A stretch of DNA of 64,000 nt. Origin: a virus. The stretch covers positions 1-64,000 of IMG/VR virus record IMGVR_UViG_3300046804_004208. One strand, written 5' to 3'. Shown one piece after another: positions 1-36,854 of this stretch (within the stretch, counting starts at the first letter, position 1; each line of letters opens with the position of its first letter). The position numbers and the translations under genes are program-made. The notes beneath the pieces were generated by a model. The model had not been told where the DNA came from and did no database searches. It worked only from the letters and a program-made list of their open reading frames with translations.

Positions 1-27
1 GGCAAATCCTACTGGGTGGCAGTTTAG
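1..27 (+). CDS. 3' end of an upstream cassette ORF (partial, GKSYWVAV*)
   Basis: Open frame ending TAG at 25-27, followed at once by the array's intergenic unit, implying the array continues left of the window. Confidence 0.45.
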   Translation, partial: GKSYWVAV

Positions 28-35
28 ATCCGCCA

Positions 36-88
36 GGGGGGCACACCCGCCCCCCGTGCTACAGTACCCAAGCAACCGACACCCCACC
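36..88 (+). promoter_or_regulatory. Type-B cassette promoter (extended -10 TGcTACAGT) with upstream GC hairpin
   Basis: GGGGGGC-ACACCC-GCCCCCC hairpin 36-55; TG-n-TACAGT 57-65; A/C-rich leader to ATG 89. Confidence 0.65.
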
Positions 89-259
89 ATGACCGACCGC
101 ACCCTCCGCAATGCCATCGCTGCCATGCTCTTCTGCTCTGTGAGCATCGTGGCAGGTGCCTGGACCCTGAAGGCCGCGGCAACCGTTGACGCCCACCAGG
201 AGCGCATGGCAGACGCCCTCTGCACCGCCGACCCTGCCTGGTGTGGTGAGCGCCGCTGA
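89..259 (+). CDS. Small protein with N-terminal hydrophobic/transmembrane helix (cassette 1)
   Basis: ATG at 89 after repeat leader; AIAAMLFCSVSIVAGAWTL hydrophobic stretch. Confidence 0.7.
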   Translation: MTDRTLRNAIAAMLFCSVSIVAGAWTLKAAATVDAHQERMADALCTADPAWCGERR

Positions 260-261
260 CC

Positions 262-296
262 TGCTACAGTACCCAAGCAACCGACACCCCACACCC
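262..296 (+). promoter_or_regulatory. Type-B cassette promoter (extended -10 TGcTACAGT)
   Basis: Near-identical copy of 57-88. Confidence 0.65.
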
Positions 297-476
297 ATGG
301 CGATCTTTTCACAGTGCTCCGACCTGCAGACCCGCGAAACCATGTGGGTCGCTCGCAAGACAGACGACGCACCCCAGACCCGCTTCGCTGGACAGATCAA
401 CCCTGCCGAAGGGTACTGGTGGGCAGCACGTTACGCCGAACGCTACGCCGACGACGTGGTGCCCCTGGAGGGTTGA
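297..476 (+). CDS. Hypothetical protein (cassette 2)
   Basis: ATG 297 after repeat leader; stop TGA overlaps the next -35 (TTGACC 473-478). Confidence 0.75.
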   Translation: MAIFSQCSDLQTRETMWVARKTDDAPQTRFAGQINPAEGYWWAARYAERYADDVVPLEG

Positions 477-526
477 CCCCTGCCCCCTGACCCTGTAGAA
501 TTCCAGAGCAAACCGCACCCCACCCC
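473..526 (+). promoter_or_regulatory. Type-A sigma70 promoter TTGACC-17-TAGAAT plus leader
   Basis: -35 at 473-478, -10 at 496-501, exact 17-bp spacer. Confidence 0.85.
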
Positions 527-691
527 ATGCTGGACGGAACCATCGCCACCGCCTTCCACGACCTGACCTCCTTCCAACTGGAGGAGTGGCTGTGGGAAGG
601 CAACCCCACCACCAAGGAGCAGCGGGCCATCCTGAAGGAACTGGCAACCCGCCAGCAGCGCCTGGAAGCAATCGCTGACCTGCTCTGGTGA
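527..691 (+). CDS. Hypothetical 54-aa protein (cassette 3; not in ORF track)
   Basis: MLDGTIATAFHDLTSFQLEEWLWEGNPTTKEQRAILKELATRQQRLEAIADLLW*; ATG 25 nt after the -10 like the other cassettes. Confidence 0.75.
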   Translation: MLDGTIATAFHDLTSFQLEEWLWEGNPTTKEQRAILKELATRQQRLEAIADLLW

Positions 692-698
692 CCCCTAC

Positions 699-760
699 GG
701 GGCACCTTGACGGGTGCCCCACCACCCTGTAGAATTCCAGAGCAAACCGCCACGGACCTG
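699..760 (+). promoter_or_regulatory. Type-A promoter TTGACG-17-TAGAAT; -35 is the loop of a perfect 8-bp stem
   Basis: GGGGCACC-TTGACG-GGTGCCCC 699-720; TAGAAT 730-735. Confidence 0.9.
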
Positions 761-967
761 ATGACCACCCTGACCCTGACCGTGACCCCTGCCATCGCTG
801 ATGAGATCTGCCACGCTCTGATCGACGCTGGTATCCGCTGGGGCGAACTGGAGACTGCTGCCCGCAACGGTGAGAACGGCATGGCACCCAGCGCCTGCCG
901 CAGCATCCGTGAGAGCGCCTTTGCCATCCGCACCATGATCCGTGAGCAGATGGCAGAGCAGATCTGA
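761..967 (+). CDS. Hypothetical protein (cassette 4)
   Basis: ATG 761, 25 nt after the -10. Confidence 0.75.
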   Translation: MTTLTLTVTPAIADEICHALIDAGIRWGELETAARNGENGMAPSACRSIRESAFAIRTMIREQMAEQI

Positions 968-974
968 CCCCCCA

Positions 975-1034
975 GGGGGGTTGGCAAACGACCCCCCATC
1001 CTGTAGAATTCCAGAGCAAACCGCAACGCACCCG
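975..1034 (+). promoter_or_regulatory. Type-A promoter TTGGCA-17-TAGAAT in hairpin
   Basis: GGGGGGT 975-981 / ACCCCCC 991-997; -35 at 981-986; -10 at 1004-1009. Confidence 0.85.
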
Positions 1035-1259
1035 ATGACCACCGCCCTCCGCGACTGCCTCAACGTGTACGCCCCTGGCACCACCTTCTCCGACATCCTG
1101 TGGGATTGCTCTCACCCTGCCGACGACACCATCGCCTGGCACATCGCCCTGGAGTCTGCAGAGATGCACTCCGCCCTCTACGACTTCCGCAAGGACTACG
1201 GGCACCTGCAGGGTGAGCGCATCGACTGCGGTGAGTTCCTCTCCTGGCTGGGGTACTGA
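1035..1259 (+). CDS. Hypothetical acidic protein (cassette 5)
   Basis: ATG 1035, 25 nt after the -10. Confidence 0.75.
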   Translation: MTTALRDCLNVYAPGTTFSDILWDCSHPADDTIAWHIALESAEMHSALYDFRKDYGHLQGERIDCGEFLSWLGY

Positions 1260-1267
1260 TCCGCTGA

Positions 1268-1330
1268 GGGGGTGGGTTGACCCCTGCCCCCCGACCCTGT
1301 AGAATTCCAGAGCAAACCGCAACGCACCCG
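1268..1330 (+). promoter_or_regulatory. Type-A promoter TTGACC-17-TAGAAT in hairpin
   Basis: GGGGGTGGG-TTGACC-CCTGCCCCC (two G.T pairs); -10 at 1300-1305. Confidence 0.9.
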
Positions 1331-1528
1331 ATGAGCAGCACCTGCCTCTACCGCATCGAACTGGATCGCGCCGATGGCACCACTGCCGTAGAGTTCCGCC
1401 GCCGCCGTCGTCCCACGACTCCTAAAGGGTTCGATCGCCAGCACAACAACGTGGTCAACTCTATCCTTGAGGAGATCCGCTACTACCGCATCGAAGGGTG
1501 GAAGCGCCTGACCGTGACGCGGGTGTGA
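1331..1528 (+). CDS. Hypothetical basic protein (cassette 6)
   Basis: ATG 1331; Arg-rich (FRRRRRP). Confidence 0.75.
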   Translation: MSSTCLYRIELDRADGTTAVEFRRRRRPTTPKGFDRQHNNVVNSILEEIRYYRIEGWKRLTVTRV

Positions 1529-1533
1529 GGGGG

Positions 1534-1587
1534 TCGACCCTCGGCACCCGACCCTGTAGAATTCCAGAGCAAACCGCAACGCACCCG
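1534..1587 (+). promoter_or_regulatory. Type-A promoter TCGACC-17-TAGAAT
   Basis: -35 at 1534-1539, -10 at 1557-1562; imperfect hairpin 1521-1549 overlapping the upstream stop. Confidence 0.8.
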
Positions 1588-1890
1588 ATGCCTGCCACCA
1601 CCGCCACCGCCTTCACCCCCGACCAGATGCTCTACCTGGGGCACTCCGTGTTCAGCAGCGCCATGCGCTCCTGGGCACTGGTGATGAACAACGACAACGA
1701 TGCCGAACTGCTGGTGCTGTTCAACAGCAGCGACACCGTGTACCGCTACGCCTTCCGCTCCTGGGAGGATGCCCGCAACTGGGATGAGATCCGCAAGCAG
1801 GGTGAGGATGAGGATGCCGACCGCATCTCCTGGGGGCGCTGCTTCCACCGCTTCTTGAGCGAAGGGGCGATCCTGCCCATCGCCGCCTGA
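1588..1890 (+). CDS. KTSC-domain-like protein (cassette 7)
   Basis: SSAMRS...ELLVLFNSSDTVYRY...SWGRCFHRFL matches the KTSC pattern SSxIxS..LxVxFxxGxxYxY..SxGxxFN. Confidence 0.6.
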   Translation: MPATTATAFTPDQMLYLGHSVFSSAMRSWALVMNNDNDAELLVLFNSSDTVYRYAFRSWEDARNWDEIRKQGEDEDADRISWGRCFHRFLSEGAILPIAA

Positions 1891-1897
1891 ACCCTAC

Positions 1898-1959
1898 GGG
1901 GCACCTTGACGGGTGCCCCCTGACCCTGTAGAATTCCAGAGCAAACCGCAACGCACCCG
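1898..1959 (+). promoter_or_regulatory. Type-A promoter TTGACG-17-TAGAAT; -35 in loop of perfect 8-bp stem
   Basis: GGGGCACC-TTGACG-GGTGCCCC 1898-1919, identical to 699-720; -10 at 1929-1934. Confidence 0.9.
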
Positions 1960-2220
1960 ATGCTCACCTCCATCATCCGCACCGCGATCCGCACCCGCCT
2001 CATCAACGACGGCCCGATGACCTGCAGCGATCTGGTTCGCGCCATGGGCATGGACCCCCGCCGCCATAAGGGCACCATCCACGCCGTGATGGTTGACCTG
2101 GAGAAGGCAGGCATCCTGGATTCCACCCGCAGCGACAACGGCAAGCGTGACCTCTGGTTCATCGTGCCCACCGCGATCCGCAAGCGTGATCGCCTTGCCG
2201 CCGCCATGGCAGGCATCTGA
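1960..2220 (+). CDS. Winged helix-turn-helix putative DNA-binding protein (cassette 8)
   Basis: IRTRLINDGPMTCSDLVRAMG...TIHAVMVDLEKAGILDS...DLWFI is a typical wHTH helix/wing pattern. Confidence 0.65.
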   Translation: MLTSIIRTAIRTRLINDGPMTCSDLVRAMGMDPRRHKGTIHAVMVDLEKAGILDSTRSDNGKRDLWFIVPTAIRKRDRLAAAMAGI

Positions 2221-2226
2221 TCTGCT

Positions 2227-2291
2227 GGGGGTGGGTTGACCCCTGCCCCCCGACCCTGTAGAATTCCAGAGCACACCACCCCCATACGAGA
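2227..2291 (+). promoter_or_regulatory. Type-A promoter TTGACC-17-TAGAAT in hairpin
   Basis: Near-identical to 1268-1314; -35 at 2236-2241, -10 at 2259-2264. Confidence 0.9.
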
Positions 2292-2588
2292 ATGGACTTC
2301 ACCATCACCCGCCTGCCCCGCCGTGGTCCCCGCAAGGGTGAGACTCTGACCCGCAACGCTCAGCACGGTGCTGGATCCGCCGTGGGTTCTGTTCGTGATT
2401 CTGACCTGCCCGCTGGTGGATTCTCCCATGCCGTTGGCGCTGGCAAGGGACTGACCATCACCCGCGTCAGTGGGTTGGGGCGTCAGTGGGTTGGCGATAA
2501 AGACGCCAACGCCTCCCGCTTCGCCGCCCAGGCGAAGGCAGACCGAATCGCTGCCGCCCGTGACCGCCTGGCAGAGCGGCAGGGGTGA
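2292..2588 (+). CDS. Hypothetical Gly/Ala/Arg-rich protein (cassette 9)
   Basis: ATG 27 nt after the -10; basic; internal xTITRx repeat. Confidence 0.7.
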   Translation: MDFTITRLPRRGPRKGETLTRNAQHGAGSAVGSVRDSDLPAGGFSHAVGAGKGLTITRVSGLGRQWVGDKDANASRFAAQAKADRIAAARDRLAERQG

Positions 2589-2835
2589 CAGTTCGTGGGG
2601 CGGCACACCCGCCCCTCATTCGTTCGTGAAGCAGCAGTTAATTGTATAACGTTATCGTTATGGCGGCGGGCCGTGTTTATAAAATCGATGGGTCCCACCA
2701 GTCTACAAAGTGTTACGAAAGGCATCGATATAATACCTTAAAAACAAAAAAATCCGGAATGAAAGAAAAGACTTAAAAGTTCATTGAAAATACACAAATC
2801 ATATATAATTTCAAAGTAAAAAATATATTAAAAAA

Positions 2836-3009
2836 ATGAAAAAAAAATCCGGAGATGAAAAACGCCCTATACAGGTTGATACAGTTAGTGGTGAGTATTA
2901 TGTTACCATTCCCGAGTGGATTATGAATGAATTATCTTGGTATGAGGATACTGAGATTAATTTTTTAATTGAAAATGGAGATGTTATTATATCAGAGTGT
3001 AATGAATAA
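2836..3009 (+). CDS. AbrB/MazE/SpoVT-like small DNA-binding protein (not in ORF track)
   Basis: MKKKSGDEKRPIQVDTVSGEYYVTIPEWIMNELSWYEDTEINFLIENGDVIISECNE*; 'VTIPxxxxxxLxWxxxxxIxFxxxxGxVII' is the AbrB swapped-hairpin signature. Confidence 0.7.
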   Translation: MKKKSGDEKRPIQVDTVSGEYYVTIPEWIMNELSWYEDTEINFLIENGDVIISECNE

Positions 3010-3184
3010 TAAGATAATGAAAGTTTATAACATATATGCAAAGAACAAGTGTTTATATCATCTTATAAGTGAACAAGAGTTTGAAATTACATGGAAAACA
3101 CTCAAAAATATGGTCGGTTTAATGAAGACCGACTACAGTGTTGAGGACCTTTCATATGAAGAGGCGTTCATTGACATTGTATAG
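3002..3184 (+). CDS. Hypothetical phage protein
   Basis: ORF track 2969..3184; ATG 3002 overlapping the upstream gene end is the likelier start. Confidence 0.6.
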   Translation: MNNKIMKVYNIYAKNKCLYHLISEQEFEITWKTLKNMVGLMKTDYSVEDLSYEEAFIDIV

Positions 3185-3199
3185 ATAATATTGTATGAT
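3171..3199 (+). promoter_or_regulatory. sigma70 (early) promoter
   Basis: TTGACA 3171-3176, 17 bp, TATGAT 3194-3199. Confidence 0.75.
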
Positions 3200-3221
3200 A
3201 TGATTGTAACTACTTTCAATT

Positions 3222-3977
3222 ATGGCAAAAGGATTTACTGTTAAGGCAAAGGCACCACTTACAAGCCAAGAAATGGAATGGGATTATGACAAAGCAAGAG
3301 AAATTCTTAAAGGTAAAAGTATAGTATTTTGTCTTCCTGGTAGAGGAGTTTCCTATACTTATCTTAAGAATTTTGTACAGCTATGTTTTGATCTTGTACA
3401 ATCTGGTGCAAGTATTCAAATATCTCAAGATTATTCTTCCATGGTTAACTTTGCAAGATGCAAATGCCTGGGAGCAAATGTTCTAAGGGGACCAGATCAA
3501 TTACCATGGGATGGTAAATTAAACTATGATTATCAGTTATGGATTGATAGTGATATTGTGTTTACAACTGAAAAGTTTTTACAACTAGTTTTAATGGATA
3601 AAGACATTGCAGCTGGTTGGTATTGTACAGAAGATGGTATGACATCTTCTGTTGCTCATTGGTTAGAAGAAGATGATTTTAGAACAAATGGTGGAGTGAT
3701 GAATCATGAGACCATTGAAACAATGAAAAATCGTAGAAAACCATTTACAGTTGATTATACTGGATTTGGTTGGTTACTAATTAAACATGGAGTTTTTGAG
3801 CATCCAGAAATGAAGTATCCATGGTTTGCACCAAAAATGCAAGTTTTTGAATCTGGAGATGTTCAAGATATGTGTGGAGAGGATGTAAGTTTCTGTCTGG
3901 ATGCAAAGGAAGCGGGATTTGAAATTTGGTGCGATCCTCGTATTAGAGTTGGTCACGAGAAAACAAGAATTATTTGA
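3222..3977 (+). CDS. GT-A fold (family 2-like) glycosyltransferase
   Basis: LWIDSD DxD motif, TGFGWLLIK, GEDVSFC, RVGHEK. Confidence 0.8.
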   Translation: MAKGFTVKAKAPLTSQEMEWDYDKAREILKGKSIVFCLPGRGVSYTYLKNFVQLCFDLVQSGASIQISQDYSSMVNFARCKCLGANVLRGPDQLPWDGKLNYDYQLWIDSDIVFTTEKFLQLVLMDKDIAAGWYCTEDGMTSSVAHWLEEDDFRTNGGVMNHETIETMKNRRKPFTVDYTGFGWLLIKHGVFEHPEMKYPWFAPKMQVFESGDVQDMCGEDVSFCLDAKEAGFEIWCDPRIRVGHEKTRII

Positions 3978-7513: not shown

Positions 7514-10500
7514 ATGATCACAACTGGTTTTGATACTAGAGTAAAAATCCAACAAATTGTTGAAAATCAGTTACCAGAATTTGTTCTATCAGAAAATCCG
7601 AAGGTTTCTGAATTTTTAAAGCAATATTATATTTCACAAGAATATCAAGGTGGACCATTAGATATTGCAGAAAATCTTGATCAATATATTAATTTAAATA
7701 ATTTAACTCCAGAAGTTATTTCTGGTATAACAAGTATAACTAAAAGTATTTCTTCTACCAATGATATAATATTTGTTAATACGACTAAAGGATTTCCTAA
7801 AGAATATGGATTACTAAAAATTGATGATGAAATTATCACATATACTGGAATTACCACAAATTCTTTTACAGGTTGTGTAAGGGGATTTAGCGCAATTTCA
7901 TCTTATAAAAATGACTTAAATTCAGATGAATTAGTATTTTCAAGCACAAGGTCCTCCTCACATATAAAAAATAGTAAGGTTGAAAATTTAAGTGCTTTAT
8001 TTTTAAAGGAATTTTATAAAAAAATAAAAATTCTGTTAGCTCCTGGATTTGAAAATATTGATTTTGTTTCAGGATTAAACGTAAATAATTTTATAAAGGA
8101 AATAAAATCTTTCTATCAGTCAAAAGGGACAGAAGAATCTTTTAAAATACTTTTTAATGTTTTATATGGAATAACTCCAAAAGTTCTTAATTTGGAAGAA
8201 TTTTTAATAAAACCATCTTCCAGTGAATTTATAAGAAGAGAGATTTTAGTAACTGAAAGAATAAGTGGTGATCCAAATAAGTTAATCGGTCAAATAGTTA
8301 AAAGTTATGATGACTCTGCTTCTGGACCAGTATCCGAAGTTGAATTGATAACTAGAAACAATAAAGTTTATTACAAACTACAATTATTTTCTGGATTTAA
8401 TGATAAAACTTTGATTGAAGGTCAATTTGAAATAACCGGAGAAACTAAATCTATAGATTCAGTTTCAATTGGATCTTCAATAATTACAGTTGATTCAACT
8501 ATTGGATTTTCACAATTCGGAACATTATATTCTGGTGATAATGTAATTTCATATTCAGATAAATCTATCAATCAATTTTTTGGATGTTCCGGGATTATTA
8601 AAAAAATAAATCCAAGAGATCAAATTAGATCTAATAATATCATTTATGGGTATGAAGATGGAAAAATTGACAAAAAAGTAGAATTGAGGGTAACAGGTGT
8701 ACTTTCAGAGTTGGAAGATACCCAAAATGTATTTCTTTTATCAAAAGGAGATGTAATTGAAATAACTAGTATTGGTGATAAAATTGAAAATCCTTCTGGA
8801 TTAAAAACATATAAAGAAGAGGTGTTTAATTCTTTTATTTACAATACTTCTTCTAGATATGAAATTGAATCTTTTTCTGGTAATAATGTTTTTTTATATG
8901 ATATTCCAGATAAATCTAGTTTAAAAATCGGAGATCATGTAGATATTTTAAATAGAAATTCTGAGAGTATTGTTTTAGAAAACGTAATAATTTTAAATAT
9001 TATTTCAAACAAATTAATATTAAACGTAAATATAACTAATGTAGATCAAAAAACAGAATTAAGTATTAGAAGAAAATTAAGTTATTCTTCTAGTTCAGGA
9101 ATACCACTGAAGTATGATAATATAACTTCAAATATACAAAACACTTATATTGAAAAAATTGGAGATGAAGAATTTATTAATATTGCAGCAAACTCTCTTC
9201 CAGATTATCCTATAGGTTGCAATTATAAATCTTCTTCTTTAATAATAAATTCTTCCTCAAATTTGGATCAAATATTTCAAGGATATGATGAAGGAGATCT
9301 AACATATTCTATAATATCATTTAAAAATAATGTTCCATTTAATAATGGAGATGCTGTTGTTTATACTGGATCTAATAAACCTTTATTTAACTTATCTTTT
9401 GGAAAAATATATTATATTCAAGTTTTAGTAAATGGAACCGAAAAAAACAAAATAAGGTTATATAATTCTAGATCTTTTATAGAATCCAACAATTATATTA
9501 AATTTGATTTATCTGAGGGTTATGTAGGAACTCACACATTTACCTTAGAATCTCAAAATGATAAATTAATTGAACCAAAAAAATATCTATTAAAGTTTCC
9601 TTTAAAACAAAATATAGAATCTGGAAAAAATATTCCAACACCAGTTGGATCAACAGGAGTTTTAATAAATGGTGTTGAAATTGTAAATTATAAATCAAAT
9701 GATAAATTATATTTCGGACCAATAGAAAATGTAAGAATTTATAATTCTGGGAAAGATTATGATGTAATAAATTTACCAAAAATTAAAATTTCTTCTCCCA
9801 TTGGGGTTGGGTCTACTGCTTATGCCGATGCGGTTATTAGAGGTTCTGTTAGAGAGGTAATAGTAGATCCAAATCAAGTTGATTTGGTAAGAGTTGTTTC
9901 TGCATCAATTTCTGGAGGAAATGGATCTGGTGCTGTATTGGAACCAATCTTAGAAAAAACTTTTAGAGAAATTGAATTTGATTCTGATCTATCACTATAT
10001 GGTGGAGGGATAGATAAAGATAATGATAGTCTTACATTTTTAAAAAATCATAACTTAAAAAATGGAACACCAATTGTATATAACAATAATGGAAATACTT
10101 CCATAGGTATTGGAACTTTTGATGGATTAAATACCGATCAAAATTTATACTTGGAGAATGGTGAAACATATTACCCAGAAATAATTAATTCTAGAGCAAT
10201 AAAATTATATAAAACTATTTCTGATTTAAATTCTGGAATTAATACTGTAGGATTTACTACTGTGAATTCTGGTGGTATTCATAAATTTAGGCTTTTAGAA
10301 GGAAAAAATGTTTTAAAAAATATCAAAGTTTTAAATAGCGGAAGTGGATATGAAAATAGATCTTTAAAGGTTAATCCATCTGGAATTTCAACAATTAATG
10401 ATAGTATTAGTTTCATAAACCATAATTTTAATGATGGAGATTTGGTCGAGTATCAAACGACTGGATCTGTTATTTCTGGATTGTCTACAGAAAAAAATTA

Positions 10501-13500
10501 TTATGTTTTAAAACTTGATGATAATTCTTTTAGACTTTGTGATGCTGGATACGTTGGAGTTGGTGCAGCAAAAACTGATTATTTAAGAAAAAAATACGTA
10601 AACTTTGAAAGTTCTGGAATTGGATATCAAATATTTTCATATCCAAAAATTACATTATCTTTGAATGTTGAATACTCTGGTTTTATAGGAACAATAACTG
10701 CAACACCAATTGTTAGGGGAAATTTAGTAGATTGTTACTTATATGAAAATGGATCTGGATATGGTTCACAAATTATGAATTTTCATAAAAAACCAAGTAT
10801 ATCAATATTAAATGGTGTTAATGCCCAAGTTAAACCAATTGTAAATAAAGGAAAAATAATTGCTGTAGAACTACAAAACGGTGGTCAAAATTATTATTCA
10901 ACTCCAGATTTAGTGGTAAATGGAAATGGAACGGGTGCAAAATTAAGAGCTGTTATTTCAAATGGATCAATAGTTAAAGTCATAGTTATAAATCAAGGTG
11001 TAAATTATGATAAAAATAATACTACAGTAAGTGTTATTTCTGCTGGAAGAAATGCAGTATTAAATTGTTCCGTGAAACCTTTAACAGTTAACAACTTTAA
11101 AAGATTTTCAGATGAAATAGCTCAAGAATTTAATGATAATTTATCTTATGGATTAGTTGGATATTCTACTATTAGAGAAGGTAGTAGTTTTTCAGATCCT
11201 ACATTAGAATCTGGACATTCAAAAATTATTGGATATGCATACGATGGAAATCCAATCTATGGACCTTTTGGATTTTCTGATCCAAACGACGATAATTCTA
11301 CTATAAAAAAATTAGAAACAGGATATGTTTTAGATCCTTCTTCAGTAAAAAGTAGACCATCAATTATTGATTTTGAACCTGGATTTTTTGTAGAAGATTA
11401 TATATTTTCTAATACTGGAGATTTGGATATTCATAATGGGAGATTTGCAAAAACTCCAGAATTTCCGGAAGGAATTTATGCATATTATGTTGGGGTAACA
11501 ACTGATACTAATACCAACACCTTAATTCCGAAATTTCCATATTTTATAGGAAATTTTTATCGTTCTTCATTAGATAATACTTCTATATTTGATCAATCGT
11601 TTGATTTTAATTCTTCAAATTTAGTAAGAAACACTTTTCCTTATAGATTAAATGAATTAAATTCCGGAAATGATTTTATACCAGAAGCAAATGACACTTT
11701 AAGACAAACTTCAATTATAAACTCAATTTCTTTAGGTGAAATTGAAGAAATTGAAATAAAAAATCCAGGAGAAAATTATGAAGTAAATGATTCTATCTCA
11801 ATTTTTTCAAAAACTGGAGGAGGATCTTCTGCAATCGTCAGTAAAATTAAAGGAAAGGAAATATATGGTTTAGAAACTAATTTTATTAAATATGAAAATG
11901 TTGTTTTTTCTTGGTTAGATGAAAATACTGTTTCTGCAAATATAAACCCACATCATAATTTTATAAACGGTGACAGTGTAAATATTTCTGGATTATCCAC
12001 AAGTATAAAAAATTTATCAGGATTTAAAGTAATTAGTTTTTCTCCAGAAGTAACAAGTTTAGCAAGTTCAATTTCTGCAAATTCAACTGTTGGTATTGTT
12101 ACAGATATAAGTATTTTTTCTCCAATATCGAAATTGAGTGTTGGCAGTTCAATTGGAATTGGAACAGAAACTTTTTCAGTTCTTAATATTTTTGATAATG
12201 AAAAAATATTAAGAGTTCGTAGAGGTGTTTCTGCTGGTCATTCTGAAGGATCATTAGTTAATAGTCTTTCAAATTTAATAACTTTAAAAGCAAATTGTCC
12301 ACAGTTTGATTCTACATTAAATAATATTGCTTATTTCAATCCTACTCTTTCTATTGGTGTCGGTACAATATCAGGATCTAATACAAATGTTTTATTTCCT
12401 ATTGGAAATTCTACAAGATTACTTTCTATTCCAACTCAAAGTATATATTTACCAAACCATAAATTTAAAAATAATCAAAAAGTATTATTATCAAAACCAC
12501 AATCTTCTTCACAATTAACTGTTAAAGATACTCCATCTGGATCATCTTTTAACTTACCTATAAGTGGAAATAGTCAATATGTTTATATAATTAATAAATC
12601 AAAAGATTATATTGGATTAGTTACTGAAGTTGGACTTACTACAACAACAAATGGATTATATTTTACTAATAATGGATCAGATAATTATCAATATAAATTA
12701 GAATCAGATTTTAATCAAGTTACTGGAGTATTACAAAAGGTTGAAACAAAAGTTTCATTATCAACATATCATGGACTAAGTTATGGTGATAAAATCGATT
12801 TAGTTGTAAATCCAAGTTTATCGGTTGGTATTGGAACTTCTTTAAGTATAAAATTAAAGTATAATGATCAATATGAAAAATTATTATTTAATCCAATTGG
12901 ATTTACTTCAACTTCCGTCAATATTTCTAATAATACAATCAATATAATAAATCATAAATTATCAACTGGAGATAAAATTTTATATACTTCAGAAGACTTA
13001 GTTTGTAGTGGATTATCTAGTGGTAAATATTTTGTTTATAGAAATGACGATAACTCCATAAGTTTGTGTGAAACTTATATTGATACTTTTTCAAATCCAC
13101 CAAATATAGTAAGCCTTGGTAGCACAGGAGGTAATTTACAAGAACTATCTTTAATTAATCCACAAGTAAAACTTTTTAGAAATAATAACTTAGTTTTTGA
13201 TACTAGTGATTCTAGTTTAATTAATTCAAATTTAAAAATATTTTATGATTCAAATTTTATTAATGAATTTGTTTCTGTTGGAACAACTAATTCATTTTTA
13301 ATTGAACAAACTGGAGAACCGGGGGTAGGAACTATATTTACGGACTCAAACATAACAATAAAATATAATCAAAAAATTCCAACAAAACTATACTATGCTC
13401 TTGAAAAAAATGGGACATTATTATCCAAAGACACTGAAGTAATTAATAATTCAGAAATATTGTATACTAATAGTCTCTATAATGGATCATACAATATATA

Positions 13501-16500
13501 TGGAATAGGAACCACAACTTTTAATATTAATTTAAATGATGTACCAGAAAAATTATCTTACAAAAAGTCCGAATGTTTTGATTTATCATATACAACAAAT
13601 TCCACCAATGATAGTGGACCAATTGACAAAATAAAAATTATATCTAGTGGATTTGGATATGATAGTTTACCTAATTTTGTTGGTGTTTCTACCATCAGTA
13701 GAGGTAAAAATGCAATTTTAAAATCAAAATCAAAATCAATAGGAAAAATAAATGATCTTCGTATTATTAATGAAGGTTTTGAGTATTCTTCAGATAAAAC
13801 ATTAAGACCAAAAGGAAAAATACCAACAGTTTTACAATTAGATAACAGCAGTAAATTAACTTCAGTTTCTGTTTTAAGTGGTGGAAGAAACTTTTTGTCT
13901 ACTCCTATTTTAGAATTAGTAAATAATTACACTAGAAAAAAAGTTAATAGTGGTATTTTAATTCCAGTTGTAAAAAATAATACTATAGTAGAAGTTAACG
14001 TAGTTGAAGAACCGTTGGGATTGCAATCAGTAGACCATACCATATTTACTACAAATAACAGTAATGGAATTCAAGTTTCTAAAATTCTTTCTTATACTAA
14101 TGGTATTGTTGAGTGTGAATTATCGACTCCACCTATTACTGGATTTTTAAATGTACCATTTAAACCTGGAGATAAAATATTTGTAGAAGGTATTTCAAAA
14201 GAATCCTTTACTGATGCATTAGGAAATACAACAACGCCTGGGAGTGGATTTAATTCTGTAGATCATGGATATGTATTTTTTACAGTAACTGAATTTAATA
14301 ATACAGATCCAGCGATATTAAAATATGATATATCTAAATTTACAGATAATGCAGGTGTTCCTAAAACATTACAAACAAATTATAGTTTAATTGTAAATCA
14401 AAAAAATTATCCAATATTTAGTATTGAGAAATCTTTAGCACAATTTTATGATAATGAAACTTTATTTGTTAATGGTTTAGAAACTGATTTAACTGTAAGG
14501 TCTTCAAATTATGATATTCTTAAAATATCTGGAGAATACCCAGTTAAATTGAATGATTTAATTTACGGAAAAATCTCAGGAAATTCTGCAACTGTTTCTG
14601 CAGTTAATAATTTTGAAAAATATTTTAAAGTAGATTATTCTAACAAAAGAAATTTTGACTGGAAAAATGATTTTGGAAAACTTAATAATGAAACACAAGT
14701 AATACAAGATAGTGACTATTACCAAACTCTTTCATACACAATTAAAAGTCCAATTTCTTATGAAGATTCTAAAGATTTTGTATCTAGGATGGTTCATCCT
14801 GTTGGAATGAAAAATTTTGCAGATATGGACATTTTTTCAAATTCTAATGTTTCAATTGCTGCTACACAGAATCTTTTACAAGTTCTTGATTTTGTCTCAG
14901 AACAAAGAGTGGATGTTGTCAGAAATTTTGATCTTGTAACTGATTATGAACCATTTTCAAATTCTTCAAATGCCATAAAGTTTAGGTATAAAAAATTATC
15001 AGACTATATTGATTGTAAAACAAATAGAGTTTTGCAAATTGATGATATAAGTTCTAGATTTTCTAGTCAAGAATTTAATAGAGATGCTTTTACTGAAGTA
15101 ATAGAATATCCAATTACAGATTTTTATTCTAAATTTTTAGTACAAGTTCATGATGAAGATAAACTAAGTTATCAGATCAGTGAAGTAGTAATCCTTAATA
15201 ATTTTGATAATACATTTACACTTAATAAATCAGATTTATACACGTTAGAAAAATTAGGAGATTTTACTGGAGAATTTGCACCTTCTGGAGATCCAGTATT
15301 AAAATTTATTCCAACAGATCCATATACAACTAATTATAATATTAAAGTTCATAGAGAAAGTTTTTCTCCAAATCCATTTAACATTGGTGTAGGATTTACT
15401 GATCTTGGATTTGTAAGGCTAACATCAAAAACTGAAAGAATGCCAAGATCATCTGGAATAAAAACTGATATTTTTATAGGATTATCTTCTTCATTCAATA
15501 CAATATATTCCAATATATTTGTTATGGATGAAGATACTTATGAAATGAATTATTTCGAAGTGATTGGATTTTATGATAGTAAAGATACGCACAAATCAGA
15601 ATTTTATTTTGATACTTATCCCTCTATAGGTGGATTATCTCAAGGATTTATTGGTACTTTTGGACTTTTTGTTGAAAACAATATTATAAAACTGCAATTT
15701 ACAAAAAATAATAATTTATCAAATATTTTAATAAAAGGAAAAACAGTTGGATTTGGTTCTACATCTGCAGGAATAGGTACATATAGATTTTTAGTTGCAG
15801 ATCAACTTGAAGGTACAGAAAAAACTTCTAAACTAGAGTCTAAACAATACAAAGGAACTGGAATTTCAACATTTATATCATATAATGCAGATGTAGAGTC
15901 TTCAGTTAAATCTTTAGTCAAAGTAGGTATAGGTACAACAGTAACTTCTCTACAGCAAGTTTTAGTATTATCAGATCTCAATAGAGTTAATATTCAACAA
16001 TATCCATTTGTTTCTGTTGGAAGCACTTCTGGTATAGGAACATTTGGTGTAACATTGAATAATAGTGTGGTTGATGTAATATTTTATCCAGACCCTCTAT
16101 ATTCTAGCAGTGAATACACAATTCAATCATTTAATCATTTTATGTTCTATGAAATTGATGAATTTAATATTCCAGAAGAATTAACTTATGGAACAGCAAA
16201 GGAGTCTTTTGATATATCATTTTACGGATCATTAAATGAGTTTGGAAAGGATAGATTAGATTTTGATTTAAACTATGAAAGAATTCCAATTTTTGAAAAA
16301 GTTTTTAATCCAAAAAATTCAAGTTTATTAGATTTGAGCACTGGAGTCTTTAAAATAAAAGATCATTTCTTCCAAACTGGAGAAGAATTAATATATACGC
16401 CTTCCTCAACTCTTATTGGAGTTCCTGGTGAACCACTTGGAATAGGTTCAACCTTAGTTAGTGGTACAACATTAATTGGAGATATTATAATTGGATTCTC

Positions 16501-19500
16501 AACAATTACAGGTGTTGGTTCAACTATTGGAATATCTACAAATGGTACTATAATTTTGGGTTCATCTATCCCAGATAATACTCAGATAATAGGAATAGGT
16601 AGAACATATACTTATTTTGTTGGTAATGTAGTTTCTTCTGGTTCATCGATAATAACTGGAGTTGCTAATACTCTTGCTCTAAAAGTTGGATCTGGAATTT
16701 ATTCTGGAAATAATATTTCTTTAGGAAATATTACATCAATTGGAATTAATTCAATAACTTCTTCAGTAACTATAAGTGAAGGTGATGATAGAATATATTA
16801 TTCTACAGATAACAATATATCACTTACTTTATCCAATGTTGCAACAGCCACTACAATTAGACAAAATTATATAACTGGAATAGTGACAGATATTTGTCCA
16901 GAAAAAGTTTATACAATTAAACTTAGTAAAGATACTTTTAAATTAACGGGAACTTTAGGTCAAACTGGAGCAGGTTTTACTTTTACATCTTCAGGATCTG
17001 GAAATATTCATAAACTAGAGATGAAAAAGAAATTAGAAAAATGTTTAATAACTGTTGATGGAGTAAATCAATATCCATTAATTCGTACGCCACTACAATT
17101 TTCAATTAAAAATAATGGAAATCCTATAGGATCTGCAACTACATTCATTACTTTAAGTGGCATTTCTTCAATATCTCCAAGAGATCTATATCAAGTAGAT
17201 GATGAATTTATGTATATTAACAATGTTGGATTGGCAACAGAAAATAATGGATTTGGACCTATAACTGGAATTGGAACTATTCCAGTTATAGAAGTTAAGC
17301 GTGGATGGGTTGGAACTGCTGCGACTACTCATGATGATAATTCAATTGGAAGAATTTATAAGGGTGCATATAATATTGTTGGTAATAGAATATGGTTTAC
17401 AGAAGCTCCTGATGGAAGAGGAAATAACAATAGATTGAATAGTAGTTTATTGCCTTTTGCGAAATCAACATTTAATGGGAGAGTATATTTAAGACAAGAT
17501 TATTCAACTAATAAAATTTATGATGATGTATCAGAAAATTTTAATGGAATTGGTAGAACTTTTACTGTTAAAAAAGATGGTGAAAATACTACAGGAATAG
17601 AAATTGGTAGTGGATTAGTCTTTATTAATGATGTTTTTCAGACTCCAGACACTGAAAATAATGCTGGCAATAATTATACATTTTCAGAAAATTCTGGAAT
17701 AACAAGCATTACATTTACCTCTGTATCAAGACCAACTCCACCATATGACATTTTAATATCCGAATATGATGTTAATCAAAATCAAGTTCCAAGAGGAGGT
17801 CTTATTGTATCTCTTGGATCTACTGGAGGATTAGGATATGCTCCTTTAGTTGGCGCTTCTGTTACTGCTATACTAAATTCTGGATCTATAGTTTCAATAG
17901 GAATAGGAACAAGTGGTTCTTTTGGATCGGGATATACAGGTAATGTATCTATAGGTGTTACAGACTCTACAGGAAATGGTGCAAATGTAACTGCAACTGT
18001 TGGTCTTGGCGGAACATTAATTTTTAATGTCGTTTCTGGGGGATTTGGGTATTCTAATCCAGAATTTATTATTAGTGATCCCTCATATCAAGATTTGCCA
18101 ATTGTTGGAGTTTCTAGATTATCGGTTGGAAATACAACGACTACTGGTATAGGATTGTCTATAACAGTTCAAGTTGGACCAAGTGATTCTGTTGGTATAG
18201 GATCTAGCTATTTTGAAGTTAAGTCTTTCAAAATAACAAAACCAGGATATGGATTTTCTCGTGGAGATGTTTTTGAAGTTGTTGGATTAGTAACTGATTC
18301 CAGATTAAATTATCCCATAGAACCATTCAGACTCGTTGTTGATGAAATATTTACAGACTCATTTGCTTCTTGGCAAATGGGAGAATTTGATTATATTGAT
18401 AGTATTAAACCTTTACAAGATGGAGTTAGAACTAGATTTCCATTGTACAGAAATAATGAATTATTAAGTTTTGAAGTTGATAGAAATGATATTGAAGCAT
18501 CTCAAATAGATTTTAATTCACTCTTATTGATATTTGTTAATGGTGTGATGCAAGAACCAAACGTATCTTATACTTTTGAAGGTGGAACAACATTTAGATT
18601 TAAAGAACCCCCTGTACAGACTGATAATATAGCAATATTCTTCTACAGAGGAACAAGAGGTGTTGATAGTGACATTATTAATATTAATGAAACTATTAAG
18701 GTTGGAGATACTATTAAAATAAACAAAAATAATAACATTTTTGGCACAATACCTCAAGATGAAAGAATTGTATCTTTAATACAGTCTGCAGATACAACAG
18801 AAACTGGAATTTATCTTGGAGATGGAATAGATGAAAATAATTTTAAACCTTTAGATTGGTTTAAGCAAAAAAGAGATTTAATTGTAAATGAATCTTTTGA
18901 ATATAAGTCAAGAGATTCATTAGAAGCACTGGTATTTCCAAGTGCAAAAATAATAAAAGATTTATCTACAAAAGATAATTCAATTTTTGTTGATGATTCA
19001 ACACTATTTAATTATGAAGAAAATGAATCTACATTAGAAATACAAAAGTTTTCTGCATTAGTTTTACCTCATTCTAATTTTTCCCCAGGAAAAATAACTG
19101 CCGTGGTAGACAATAACAGCACTGACATATCTTCATTGATAATTGAAAATGGTGGTAGTGGATATACTGGAAATTCAGTTGTTTTAAAAATTTCCAATCC
19201 TAAAAAAATTGGTATTGGTATAGGAACTACCGCAACTGCTACTGTCACTGTGTCTGCTGCCGGTACTTTAACAAGTCCAATAACAATATCAAATCCAGGA
19301 TTTGGTTATACCTTTATCCCACAGGTTTTAATACCAGAACCAGAAACAATTGGTGAAATGTTAGACGACATTCAACTTGTTGAGGGATTTTCGGGAATTA
19401 TAACTGGAATTACTACTAGTGTTGGCACAAATGGAAATCCATTGGCAATAAATTTCCAAGTTAAATTTGATCCAGAAAGTATAATCAGTGGATTATTGCC

Positions 19501-19897
19501 AGGTTATCCTATTTTTGTTTTTGATACAACCGTTGGTAATGGAATTACATCTATAGATAATGGAGACTTAAATGTAGTAGGAATTGGTACAACTTTTGTA
19601 GATAACATATATTATGTTCACAATATTACAGAAAATAATTTAAGAGGTTTAATTGTTAGTAATATTTTATCATCAACTGATTTATCAGGACTAAGTACTT
19701 CTGGAGTTGATATTTGTGGTAGATTCTCTTGGGGAAAATTATCTGGATTTAAGAGATCTTCTAATCCGATTTCAATAGGAGTTAGTGGATATACTATCAA
19801 CTCTGGACTTACAACATTCCATTCAATACAAAGAAGAAAGTATGGATTGAGAGATAGTGGATCGCTGATAAAACAGTTCCCAGAGGGATCTTTATAA
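7514..19897 (+). CDS. gp7: Giant baseplate wedge initiator gp7-like structural protein (4127 aa)
   Basis: Between gp6 and gp8; QLPEFV..FLKQYY and FYQSKGTEESFKILF N-terminus; QDSDYYQTLSYTIKS..VHPVGMKNF; many NHxxxxGDxxxY and NxGSGY repeats. Confidence 0.75.
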   Translation: MITTGFDTRVKIQQIVENQLPEFVLSENPKVSEFLKQYYISQEYQGGPLDIAENLDQYINLNNLTPEVISGITSITKSISSTNDIIFVNTTKGFPKEYGLLKIDDEIITYTGITTNSFTGCVRGFSAISSYKNDLNSDELVFSSTRSSSHIKNSKVENLSALFLKEFYKKIKILLAPGFENIDFVSGLNVNNFIKEIKSFYQSKGTEESFKILFNVLYGITPKVLNLEEFLIKPSSSEFIRREILVTERISGDPNKLIGQIVKSYDDSASGPVSEVELITRNNKVYYKLQLFSGFNDKTLIEGQFEITGETKSIDSVSIGSSIITVDSTIGFSQFGTLYSGDNVISYSDKSINQFFGCSGIIKKINPRDQIRSNNIIYGYEDGKIDKKVELRVTGVLSELEDTQNVFLLSKGDVIEITSIGDKIENPSGLKTYKEEVFNSFIYNTSSRYEIESFSGNNVFLYDIPDKSSLKIGDHVDILNRNSESIVLENVIILNIISNKLILNVNITNVDQKTELSIRRKLSYSSSSGIPLKYDNITSNIQNTYIEKIGDEEFINIAANSLPDYPIGCNYKSSSLIINSSSNLDQIFQGYDEGDLTYSIISFKNNVPFNNGDAVVYTGSNKPLFNLSFGKIYYIQVLVNGTEKNKIRLYNSRSFIESNNYIKFDLSEGYVGTHTFTLESQNDKLIEPKKYLLKFPLKQNIESGKNIPTPVGSTGVLINGVEIVNYKSNDKLYFGPIENVRIYNSGKDYDVINLPKIKISSPIGVGSTAYADAVIRGSVREVIVDPNQVDLVRVVSASISGGNGSGAVLEPILEKTFREIEFDSDLSLYGGGIDKDNDSLTFLKNHNLKNGTPIVYNNNGNTSIGIGTFDGLNTDQNLYLENGETYYPEIINSRAIKLYKTISDLNSGINTVGFTTVNSGGIHKFRLLEGKNVLKNIKVLNSGSGYENRSLKVNPSGISTINDSISFINHNFNDGDLVEYQTTGSVISGLSTEKNYYVLKLDDNSFRLCDAGYVGVGAAKTDYLRKKYVNFESSGIGYQIFSYPKITLSLNVEYSGFIGTITATPIVRGNLVDCYLYENGSGYGSQIMNFHKKPSISILNGVNAQVKPIVNKGKIIAVELQNGGQNYYSTPDLVVNGNGTGAKLRAVISNGSIVKVIVINQGVNYDKNNTTVSVISAGRNAVLNCSVKPLTVNNFKRFSDEIAQEFNDNLSYGLVGYSTIREGSSFSDPTLESGHSKIIGYAYDGNPIYGPFGFSDPNDDNSTIKKLETGYVLDPSSVKSRPSIIDFEPGFFVEDYIFSNTGDLDIHNGRFAKTPEFPEGIYAYYVGVTTDTNTNTLIPKFPYFIGNFYRSSLDNTSIFDQSFDFNSSNLVRNTFPYRLNELNSGNDFIPEANDTLRQTSIINSISLGEIEEIEIKNPGENYEVNDSISIFSKTGGGSSAIVSKIKGKEIYGLETNFIKYENVVFSWLDENTVSANINPHHNFINGDSVNISGLSTSIKNLSGFKVISFSPEVTSLASSISANSTVGIVTDISIFSPISKLSVGSSIGIGTETFSVLNIFDNEKILRVRRGVSAGHSEGSLVNSLSNLITLKANCPQFDSTLNNIAYFNPTLSIGVGTISGSNTNVLFPIGNSTRLLSIPTQSIYLPNHKFKNNQKVLLSKPQSSSQLTVKDTPSGSSFNLPISGNSQYVYIINKSKDYIGLVTEVGLTTTTNGLYFTNNGSDNYQYKLESDFNQVTGVLQKVETKVSLSTYHGLSYGDKIDLVVNPSLSVGIGTSLSIKLKYNDQYEKLLFNPIGFTSTSVNISNNTINIINHKLSTGDKILYTSEDLVCSGLSSGKYFVYRNDDNSISLCETYIDTFSNPPNIVSLGSTGGNLQELSLINPQVKLFRNNNLVFDTSDSSLINSNLKIFYDSNFINEFVSVGTTNSFLIEQTGEPGVGTIFTDSNITIKYNQKIPTKLYYALEKNGTLLSKDTEVINNSEILYTNSLYNGSYNIYGIGTTTFNINLNDVPEKLSYKKSECFDLSYTTNSTNDSGPIDKIKIISSGFGYDSLPNFVGVSTISRGKNAILKSKSKSIGKINDLRIINEGFEYSSDKTLRPKGKIPTVLQLDNSSKLTSVSVLSGGRNFLSTPILELVNNYTRKKVNSGILIPVVKNNTIVEVNVVEEPLGLQSVDHTIFTTNNSNGIQVSKILSYTNGIVECELSTPPITGFLNVPFKPGDKIFVEGISKESFTDALGNTTTPGSGFNSVDHGYVFFTVTEFNNTDPAILKYDISKFTDNAGVPKTLQTNYSLIVNQKNYPIFSIEKSLAQFYDNETLFVNGLETDLTVRSSNYDILKISGEYPVKLNDLIYGKISGNSATVSAVNNFEKYFKVDYSNKRNFDWKNDFGKLNNETQVIQDSDYYQTLSYTIKSPISYEDSKDFVSRMVHPVGMKNFADMDIFSNSNVSIAATQNLLQVLDFVSEQRVDVVRNFDLVTDYEPFSNSSNAIKFRYKKLSDYIDCKTNRVLQIDDISSRFSSQEFNRDAFTEVIEYPITDFYSKFLVQVHDEDKLSYQISEVVILNNFDNTFTLNKSDLYTLEKLGDFTGEFAPSGDPVLKFIPTDPYTTNYNIKVHRESFSPNPFNIGVGFTDLGFVRLTSKTERMPRSSGIKTDIFIGLSSSFNTIYSNIFVMDEDTYEMNYFEVIGFYDSKDTHKSEFYFDTYPSIGGLSQGFIGTFGLFVENNIIKLQFTKNNNLSNILIKGKTVGFGSTSAGIGTYRFLVADQLEGTEKTSKLESKQYKGTGISTFISYNADVESSVKSLVKVGIGTTVTSLQQVLVLSDLNRVNIQQYPFVSVGSTSGIGTFGVTLNNSVVDVIFYPDPLYSSSEYTIQSFNHFMFYEIDEFNIPEELTYGTAKESFDISFYGSLNEFGKDRLDFDLNYERIPIFEKVFNPKNSSLLDLSTGVFKIKDHFFQTGEELIYTPSSTLIGVPGEPLGIGSTLVSGTTLIGDIIIGFSTITGVGSTIGISTNGTIILGSSIPDNTQIIGIGRTYTYFVGNVVSSGSSIITGVANTLALKVGSGIYSGNNISLGNITSIGINSITSSVTISEGDDRIYYSTDNNISLTLSNVATATTIRQNYITGIVTDICPEKVYTIKLSKDTFKLTGTLGQTGAGFTFTSSGSGNIHKLEMKKKLEKCLITVDGVNQYPLIRTPLQFSIKNNGNPIGSATTFITLSGISSISPRDLYQVDDEFMYINNVGLATENNGFGPITGIGTIPVIEVKRGWVGTAATTHDDNSIGRIYKGAYNIVGNRIWFTEAPDGRGNNNRLNSSLLPFAKSTFNGRVYLRQDYSTNKIYDDVSENFNGIGRTFTVKKDGENTTGIEIGSGLVFINDVFQTPDTENNAGNNYTFSENSGITSITFTSVSRPTPPYDILISEYDVNQNQVPRGGLIVSLGSTGGLGYAPLVGASVTAILNSGSIVSIGIGTSGSFGSGYTGNVSIGVTDSTGNGANVTATVGLGGTLIFNVVSGGFGYSNPEFIISDPSYQDLPIVGVSRLSVGNTTTTGIGLSITVQVGPSDSVGIGSSYFEVKSFKITKPGYGFSRGDVFEVVGLVTDSRLNYPIEPFRLVVDEIFTDSFASWQMGEFDYIDSIKPLQDGVRTRFPLYRNNELLSFEVDRNDIEASQIDFNSLLLIFVNGVMQEPNVSYTFEGGTTFRFKEPPVQTDNIAIFFYRGTRGVDSDIININETIKVGDTIKINKNNNIFGTIPQDERIVSLIQSADTTETGIYLGDGIDENNFKPLDWFKQKRDLIVNESFEYKSRDSLEALVFPSAKIIKDLSTKDNSIFVDDSTLFNYEENESTLEIQKFSALVLPHSNFSPGKITAVVDNNSTDISSLIIENGGSGYTGNSVVLKISNPKKIGIGIGTTATATVTVSAAGTLTSPITISNPGFGYTFIPQVLIPEPETIGEMLDDIQLVEGFSGIITGITTSVGTNGNPLAINFQVKFDPESIISGLLPGYPIFVFDTTVGNGITSIDNGDLNVVGIGTTFVDNIYYVHNITENNLRGLIVSNILSSTDLSGLSTSGVDICGRFSWGKLSGFKRSSNPISIGVSGYTINSGLTTFHSIQRRKYGLRDSGSLIKQFPEGSL

Positions 19898-36805: not shown

Positions 36806-36854
36806 TTTTTTATGAGTGAAGTTTATCTTAGGGGTCCAGAAAGGGGGTATGAAT

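Follow-up and report, generated by a model that had tools for sequence, protein, structure and literature searches.

A GC-rich island of PeSL-like single-gene cassettes in T4-like cyanomyoviruses, probably shuffled at repeated promoter-hairpin units

Here we describe an island of small single-gene cassettes at positions 1-2620 of a 64,000-nt stretch of viral DNA (the window), which comprises the first 64,000 nt of IMG/VR record IMGVR_UViG_3300046804_004208 (103,861 bp, a 'linear' contig with a CheckV completeness of 53%). Each small open reading frame (ORF) in the island is preceded by a copy of a repeated promoter-hairpin unit, and the account that we favour, and think likely to be correct, is that this is an array of expression cassettes resembling promoter-early stem-loop (PeSL) elements, shuffled by homologous recombination at the units. 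The island appears to be a hyperplastic region of one lineage of T4-like cyanomyoviruses that includes the cultured phage S-PM2. In the mechanism that we propose, a cassette would run from a promoter through a C/A-rich leader of ~18-20 transcribed nt, lacking a Shine-Dalgarno (SD) sequence, and a small ORF to a GC hairpin. This hairpin would enclose the -35 TTGAC of the following cassette, with a spacer of 17-18 bp and then a TAnnnT -10 box behind it. Each gene would be transcribed separately by host RNA polymerase carrying a sigma-70-type factor; the hairpin, formed in RNA, would end or stabilise the transcript of the gene before it. Direct repeats with 13-50 bp of near-identity, such as these units, would allow homologous recombination by the phage itself to delete, insert and permute cassettes at them, as PeSL elements do, possibly through circular intermediates.

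A GC-rich array at the end of a cyanomyovirus contig

Judged by its genes, the virus is a T4-like cyanomyovirus, because the window encodes a T4-type major capsid protein together with tail sheath, large terminase and gp25 genes; a UvsW-type helicase and a gp46-type nuclease subunit are encoded as well. The capsid protein is 78% identical to that of P-SSM2 and 77% to that of S-SRM01, in line with the T4-type cyanophage named in an original prediction made from the sequence alone. The composition of positions 1-2620 is 63-64% GC, and the remaining 61 kb is mostly 25-35% GC, with no 1-kb window above 45%. The switch is sharp, taking place within about 50 bp past a hairpin at 2597-2615. The contig begins within the island, and the window holds the island's right-hand part.

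The array predicted in this region stood up in its details. All nine small ORFs (54-100 aa; starts in Table 1) have a GC content at third codon positions (GC3) of 0.68-0.89 in the called frame, the codon-position pattern of genuine high-GC genes, and no two of them cluster together at E<1e-4, so that they are mutually unrelated, as had been proposed. The predicted partial tenth ORF at 1-27 belongs to family [27], known in relatives, and is the 3' terminus of such a cassette. Bracketed family numbers here and below denote clusters from a joint ORF clustering of the window and 39 relatives (the relatives carry L numbers); in these terms the window's order is [26][0][9][36][3][47][7][10][24].

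The intergenic units span 37-71 bp and, as repeat counts and a sigma-70 scan confirm, comprise seven of a TAGAAT type and two of a TACAGT type. The 19-mer CCTGTAGAATTCCAGAGCA has seven copies, all on the + strand, and the reversed-pattern control has 0. The 31-mer TGCTACAGTACCCAAGCAACCGACACCCCAC has two identical copies; the 31-mer of the TACAGT units contains TGCTACAGT. A sigma-70 consensus scan of positions 1-3300 gave 13 sites, compared with 1.7 +/- 1.2 in shuffles; seven of the 13 are the units, all on the + strand and all with a 17-nt spacer. Two of the seven have degenerate -35 boxes (TTGGCA at 981 and TCGACC at 1534), and neither TACAGT-type unit has a -35 box. The recurrence of upstream-arm subtypes at non-adjacent units, also part of the prediction, is seen in positions 689-769 and 1888-1968, which are 89% identical.

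The island recurs at a fixed position, also in cultured S-PM2

The original prediction proposed a search of related phages for the unit, and this search returned variants in 237 IMG/VR loci. The exact 19-mer CCTGTAGAATTCCAGAGCA occurs in 39 other IMG/VR contigs, each of which joins 1-5 kb of ~60-65% GC to DNA of 25-35% GC; these contigs reach up to 177 kb and several hold both flanks. Two further unit variants occur in at least 119 contigs each. A window of at least 55% GC is present in 196 of the 237 unit loci. A flanking gene of PHROG 1574 was found in 136 loci, and the island lies directly upstream of it in 135 of these 136. The position is thus fixed, a few genes upstream of the gp25/gp6 baseplate genes, and this holds across backbones that are only 69-78% identical and in S-PM2.

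The finished genome of S-PM2 (NC_006820, 37.8% GC) carries, at 21.57-24.80 kb, ~11 + strand cassettes of 55-89 aa with a GC3 of 0.71-0.84 and the same unit design, in an island of 55-62% GC. Its flanks are those of the relatives (clusters 33, 22 and 102 on the left; 2, 17 and gp25 on the right), and seven cassette families are shared with it ([28], [80], [97], [56], [18], [81] and [0]). The S-PM2 island is orthologous to that of the window. A tRNA-Leu(UAA) gene precedes the island by a few kb in four relatives (L013 13404-13490, L025 9623-9707, L027 9656-9741 and L031 2356-2441), and the tRNA cluster of S-PM2 (17.4-19.3 kb) occupies the corresponding place; no tRNA gene was found within the 64-kb window.

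An assembly chimera, in which a GC-rich fragment was misjoined to the end of an AT-rich phage contig, was among the outcomes that the original prediction named as counting against it, and the location of the island at the very start of a 'linear' contig that is 53% complete would fit one. The same junction nevertheless recurs across many samples in well over 100 independent contigs, some of which hold both flanks, and it is present in the finished genome of the S-PM2 isolate; we rejected this explanation as having next to no chance of being right. Many contigs, including the window's own, end inside the island, which is what a repeat-rich and heterogeneous locus would lead one to expect.

As separate observations on this locus, multiple island variants were recovered from one sample (for example, three or more contigs each from 3300010354 and 3300021962), so cassette variants co-occur in one community. 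In S-PM2 (L246), several unit-preceded GC-rich + strand cassettes are unannotated or are overlapped by the minus-strand ORFs p067 and p070, which look spurious; examples are 21570-21758, 21830-22027, 22097-22264, 23012-23215, 23263-23466, 23503-23718 and 23789-24058. In the RefSeq annotation of S-PM2, several cassettes thus seem to be absent or assigned to the opposite strand.

Promoter, leader and hairpin of the units

Across the relatives we gathered 226 distinct upstream regions. A TAnnnT box is present in 190 of them, 22-27 nt from the ATG in 159, and its variants (TAGAAT 62, TACAAT 49, TATACT 21, TACACT 17, TACAGT 11 and TATAAT 10) all keep T1, A2 and T6, the positions that are invariant in a -10 element. 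A -35 box (5/6 match to the TTGAC box) was identified in 77 of the 190 units; spacer lengths are 17 nt (53) or 18 nt (26). The leaders are composed of 44% C, 27% A and 16% G, and an SD-like motif is present in only 8 of 190. The host-type promoter with a 17-nt spacer between -35 and -10, and the accompanying hairpin, therefore agree with the anatomy originally predicted for the units.

The loop of the GC hairpin holds TTGAC in 46 of 50 distinct sequence segments, with folding energies typically of -15 to -21 kcal/mol; control segments from island coding sequence average -6.7 kcal/mol, and 1.3% of them reach -15. The stem arms vary yet remain complementary (GGGGCACC/GGTGCCCC, GGGGCAGG/CCTGCCCC, GGGGCGGG/CCGCCCC and GGGGAGGG/CCCTCCCC, plus G-U wobbles). 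Among 23 same-register copies, four of the eight stem pairs are changed on both sides, a covariation score reached by 0 of 500 shuffles. These copies were selected for folding, which accounts for the 99.5% of paired cells in the alignment but does not explain the double changes. The G-U pairs in the stems suggest that the structure matters in RNA.

The marine phage S-SM2 (NC_015279 46750-46830; L247 5990-6060) has a unit of the form GGGCACC-TTGAC-GGGTGCCC with a T6 run and a -10 box. This unit sits in an AT context in a phage that has no GC-rich island, so the design with a -35 in a terminator loop extends to marine cyanomyoviruses without such an island. In S-RIM32, a hairpin with a T7 run stands ahead of its copy of [47]. 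Because both of these hairpins carry T-runs, they support the view of the unit as a putative terminator-plus-promoter composite.

In relatives with complete islands the island is bipartite, as seen in L013, L031, L027, L046, L023 and L032. The gp25-proximal half, which is the part in the window, has TTGAC-17/18-TAGAAT promoters and a TCCAGAGCAAACC leader; the gp25-distal (left) half has TATACT, TACACT or TACAAT without a -35 box and a GATCTCAGTTC-type leader, and some of its units have TGGCAC ~38 nt upstream of the -10 box. This distal promoter class may be a different temporal class. In the Synechococcus phage Syn9, early genes are reportedly driven by a novel element, said to be a two-armed upstream site ~30 nt before the -10 box with no -35, and middle genes by host-like promoters. 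Repeated promoter cassettes before small cyanomyovirus genes are common to the Syn9 promoter classes and to the array. The difference from the early element is that the seven TAGAAT units of the window are full host-like -35/-10 promoters: the window's units have a -35 box and no TGGCAC/GGCACA at early-element distance, and left-half units of relatives partly have one. The window's cassettes may consequently be middle rather than early, given the reported role of host-like promoters in Syn9, and the left-half TGGCAC class may be the reported early element.

Cassettes are gained, lost and reordered with junctions in the units

In the joint clustering, the flanks of the 39 relatives and the window are syntenic, and the islands are mosaics of 6-18 cassettes. 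Identical gene order among relatives would have spoken against shuffling, and the orders differ: L013 reads ...[9][14][26][0][47][36][3][10][12] and L010 reads [9][40][7][3][0]. BLAST segments shared by the window and its relatives begin and end in units. Close relatives differ by single cassettes. L020 and L009, whose flanking genes are 96.8% identical (97-98.5% for other contigs of both lineages), read [14][26][0][9][3][15][12] and [14][0][3][10][15][12], respectively, which amounts to three single-cassette indels. The difference between L026 and L033, whose flanks are 97.7% identical, consists of [38] and an additional copy of [0]; that between L018 and L027 (94.7%) consists of [41] and [7].

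The junctions themselves lie in the repeats. Cassette [26] has a copy of a 30-nt repeat on either side, and L009, which lacks the cassette, retains a single copy. The [9] junction joins the hairpin of the left unit to the leader of the right unit, with the crossover inside CCCTGTAGAATTC, a 13-nt core common to both. The [38] junction falls in the G-run of a hairpin. Four cassettes of the window have an identical 35-nt promoter-leader, and the same genes carry other leaders in other phages. Order comparison, BLAST segments and junctions in relatives together bear out the prediction that cassettes are gained, lost and reordered and that the breaks fall in the units. A cassette is best seen as a promoter-leader-ORF-hairpin segment, with crossovers inside common cores.

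Several observations weigh against shuffling of PeSL-like cassettes by homologous recombination at the units. In 185 of 285 cassettes, the promoter-leader resembles its counterparts in front of the same gene family in other lineages more than it does those of its same-contig neighbours, and within-genome homogenisation is seen in 84 of 285, so the units mostly travel with their gene and homogenisation is partial. Some junction homologies, those in G-runs, are very short. The genes are tightly packed, such that viable rearrangements have to break between genes and selection alone would enrich intergenic junctions. The identity of cassettes compared with that of flanks gave a mixed result as a test of horizontal flow, with only ~25% of pairs whose flanks are below 80% identity having cassettes more than 5 points more similar, a comparison that is confounded by composition. 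Last, a terminator scan of positions 1-3300, in which the GC hairpins were not called, found no T-run terminator in the window's units.

A different explanation of the mosaic is that the units are expression punctuation only, kept alike by selection, and that illegitimate or microhomology recombination plus selection rearranged the genes around them. The promoter-leaders that travel with their downstream genes and the junctions in short G-runs are as this explanation would have it, and so is the diversity of -10 boxes and leaders across the island. It sits poorly, however, with the clean reduction of two 30-nt direct repeats to one at [26], with a crossover in a 13-nt core common to both units at [9], with the identical 35-nt promoter-leader on four window cassettes whose genes have other leaders elsewhere, and with the many contigs, this one included, that break inside the island. 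We therefore regard punctuation without recombination at the units as unlikely, and recombination between the repeated units as the better account of the junctions.

Composition, codon usage and the origin of the GC richness

What is new in this array is its composition, with a GC3 of 0.81 for the island against 0.14 for 16 genes of the backbone. The codon choices in the island are the opposite of those in the backbone. For Leu, the island uses CTG in 67% and the backbone TTA in 53%; for Arg, CGC in 77% and AGA in 70%; for Ile, ATC in 100% and ATT + ATA in 92%; and for Lys, AAG in 88% and AAA in 81%.

Such a contrast would be expected if the island were foreign DNA that arrived, repeats included, from a GC-rich donor (a host chromosome or GC-rich co-infecting phages), either in one block or by continual re-import. 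The 35-point GC jump at a sharp boundary and the opposed codon usage point in this direction, as does the S-PM2 island, whose 55-62% GC is close to the ~60% GC of Synechococcus WH7803, the host of S-PM2. However, the 19-mer CCTGTAGAATTCCAGAGCA is absent from 185,579 prokaryote genomes, and the same genomes contain no relative of the cassette protein [7]; a host origin was rejected on these two grounds. A GC-rich phage reservoir was rejected as well, since 0 unit loci longer than 6 kb have a GC-rich backbone, and all viral relatives of [7] (its 50 relatives are all from metagenomes) likewise lie in islands of this kind, within AT-rich backbones. The fixed position across 69-78% identical backbones and in S-PM2 also speaks against import, and no match to an IntI-type tyrosine recombinase (PF00589) or other integrase was found in the 104-kb record, which is 53% complete. 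We consider a foreign origin improbable. A psbA gene, sought as a route to host loci, was not present in the 103,861-bp record.

The host-like composition may be kept by selection rather than ancestry, with the island as a dedicated expression platform whose units allow its content to be swapped. We put this forward tentatively, as possible rather than probable. On this platform, genes would be written in the codon dialect of a GC-rich host (CTG, CGC, ATC, AAG) in G-poor, unstructured, SD-less mRNAs, which would be translated before phage tRNAs for AT-rich codons are available and would perhaps escape AU-directed RNase E. Host-matched codon usage before phage tRNAs act fits the framework of PMC3152331, and host-matched codons for genes translated at that stage are an attractive reading of the island. 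No GC-rich island was found upstream of gp25 in the Synechococcus phages S-SKS1 and Syn9 or in the Prochlorococcus phages P-TIM68 and P-TIM40. These isolates weaken that reading, and with it the idea that GC-rich hosts demand host codon matching; S-SKS1 and Syn9 infect Synechococcus without such an island. In a non-adaptive alternative, GC-biased gene conversion at a recombination hotspot would have made the island.

Feature map, cargo and side observations

The features of the array are collected in Table 1.

Table 1. Coordinates of cassettes, units and the right boundary of the island in the window
Feature	Position	Strand	Description
Tail of cassette ORF [27]	1-27	+	GKSYWVAV and stop (last eight codons + stop); C-terminus and downstream unit also in L013, L020, L021, L031
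Unit 1	28-88	+	GC hairpin ~36-54; TG-extended -10 TACAGT 60-65; C/A-rich leader; no TTGAC -35
Cassette ORF [26]	89-259	+	56 aa; hydrophobic N-terminus; no family match
Unit 2	260-296	+	Exact second copy of the 31-nt TACAGT unit (262-292); direct repeat bracketing [26]
Cassette ORF [0]	297-476	+	59 aa; most widespread family, 35 copies in relatives; also in S-PM2
Unit 3	470-526	+	-35 TTGACC 473-478 overlapping the TGA stop of [0]; -10 TAGAAT 496-501; leader
Cassette ORF [9]	527-691	+	54 aa
Unit 4	692-760	+	Hairpin 699-720 with -35 TTGACG (707-712) in loop; -10 730-735
Cassette ORF [36]	761-967	+	68 aa
Unit 5	968-1034	+	Alternative C6/G6/C6 hairpins; -35-like TTGGCA 981-986; -10 1004-1009
Cassette ORF [3]	1035-1259	+	74 aa; second most widespread family
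Unit 6	1260-1330	+	Hairpin 1268-1290 with G-U wobbles; -35 1277-1282 in loop; -10 1300-1305
Cassette ORF [47]	1331-1528	+	65 aa; PHROG 5495
Unit 7	1529-1587	+	Mini-palindrome GGGTCGACCC; -35-like TCGACC 1534-1539; -10 1557-1562
Cassette ORF [7]	1588-1890	+	100 aa; probably KTSC-fold
Unit 8	1891-1959	+	Hairpin 1898-1919 with -35 (1906-1911) in loop; -10 1929-1934
Cassette ORF [10]	1960-2220	+	86 aa; weak MarR-type winged-helix match
Unit 9	2221-2291	+	Hairpin 2227-2249 with -35 (2236-2241) in loop; -10 2259-2264; divergent leader
Cassette ORF [24]	2292-2588	+	98 aa; last of the island
Right boundary	2589-2740	+	Promoter-less hairpin 2597-2615; conserved stretch; palindrome ATAACGTTAT; switch to AT-rich DNA

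Of 29 cassette families scanned, 27 have no Pfam match and only [18] matches a Pfam family (DUF7249); [10] gave a weak hit to MarR_2 (E 0.012), below the curated cut-off. The [47] protein belongs to a PHROG of unknown function and has a homologue at 55% GC in the marine phage S-RIM32, and two further weak PHROG matches (E ~0.004) are likewise of unknown function. For [7], an AlphaFold2 model (pLDDT 80) has its best PDB matches in the KTSC proteins 4rgi and 7x8c (probability 0.93-0.96, E 0.17), from which it is probably a KTSC-fold protein. In the protein atlas, [3] falls into viral hypothetical clusters only. RefSeq labels S-PM2p068 an 'anti-restriction protein', for which Pfam gave no support. 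A role of the cargo in host takeover or anti-defence, as originally predicted, would be conjectural.

At the right edge, the hairpin at 2597-2615 resembles that at 36-54 without a -10 box or an ORF, and the conserved stretch TCATTCGTTCGTG... and the palindrome ATAACGTTAT recur at the right island edge in L018, L027, L030 and L038. Rfam gave no known RNA family in positions 1-3300 of the window, the right-boundary stretch included. The poly-C run before the ATG of [0] (window 283-296) varies from ~8 to 13 C among otherwise near-identical units (L009, L019, L020, L027 and L039; also L026, L033 and L035). This variation could reflect slippage or assembly error, and it might alter leader length or translation. 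Elsewhere in the window, two giant ORFs lie downstream of gp6 (7514-19897, 4127 aa; 21508-28563, 2351 aa), in the position of large structural/fibre proteins in Syn9, P-TIM68 and P-TIM40, and the large terminase ORF (36816-39491), at 891 aa, is far above the usual length.

Relation to PeSL cassettes, the S-PM2 ORFanage and integrons

PeSL elements combine a strong sigma-70-like promoter with a terminator stem-loop next to it, and carry a Shine-Dalgarno sequence and start codon; they cluster in hyperplastic regions, go with indels between close relatives and form mini-circles (PMC4122927). PeSL cassettes are known in the T4-type phages RB49/phi1, T4/PST and KVP40/nt-1 (PMC2839356, PMC4122927). 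The array described here is a cyanophage variant of these cassettes and not an integron. Four PeSL traits are found in it: a sigma-70-like promoter (-35, ~17 bp, -10) and a stem-loop before each small ORFan, clustering of the elements between small ORFans in a hyperplastic region of a T4-like genome, and indels, replacements and displacements between close relatives at the elements, with no dedicated recombinase. The Shine-Dalgarno sequence of PeSL elements is absent here. The variant differs from PeSL elements in that the window's hairpin encloses the -35, whereas the PeSL stem-loop lies upstream of it; in that no T-run follows the stem in the window's units; and in that the host is a cyanobacterium and the whole array is a compositional island.

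The S-PM2 'ORFanage' (ORF002-078; PMC2984593, PMC4503421) is the known region closest to hand, and the window's island is orthologous to its 3' end, at 21.6-24.8 kb. Puxty et al. reported intense shuffling of ORFanage ORFs and their enrichment in freshwater metagenomes, and found PeSLs too sparse in the mutant-deleted part of the ORFanage to explain the shuffling, the mechanism of which they left open (PMC4503421). Their account does not cover S-PM2 21.5-24.8 kb. We found no description of the GC-rich sub-island or its units in the literature, although an earlier mention in the 2005 S-PM2 genome paper is possible. To call this a distinct system, as the original prediction did, is thus an overstatement: the compositional island is new, but the units are a PeSL variant and S-PM2 already carries the orthologous island.

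The comparison with integrons, also made in the original prediction, holds as a loose analogy only. Both are one-way arrays of unrelated single-gene cassettes with structured repeats between them and with content that is variable among relatives. However, each cassette here has its own -35/-10 promoter, whereas integron cassettes are promoterless; the array has no attC/attI sites, and no integrase was found in the 103,861-bp record, which is 53% complete.

Discussion

PeSL-type shuffling was previously documented only in T4-like phages of enterobacteria and vibrios. The array offers a concrete and widespread mechanism by which small accessory genes could be traded among freshwater and coastal cyanomyoviruses, and its repeats break metagenome assemblies at the island locus. 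Two opposite codon dialects within one lytic genome run counter to the view of a constitutively low GC content in cyanomyoviruses (PMC3152331), and the GC3 of 0.81 against 0.14 provides a natural experiment in which codon usage, tRNA supply and the timing of infection can be studied. For S-PM2, in which the mechanism of ORFanage shuffling was left open (PMC4503421), the array supplies a candidate, and one that is directly testable because S-PM2 and Synechococcus WH7803 are both cultured.

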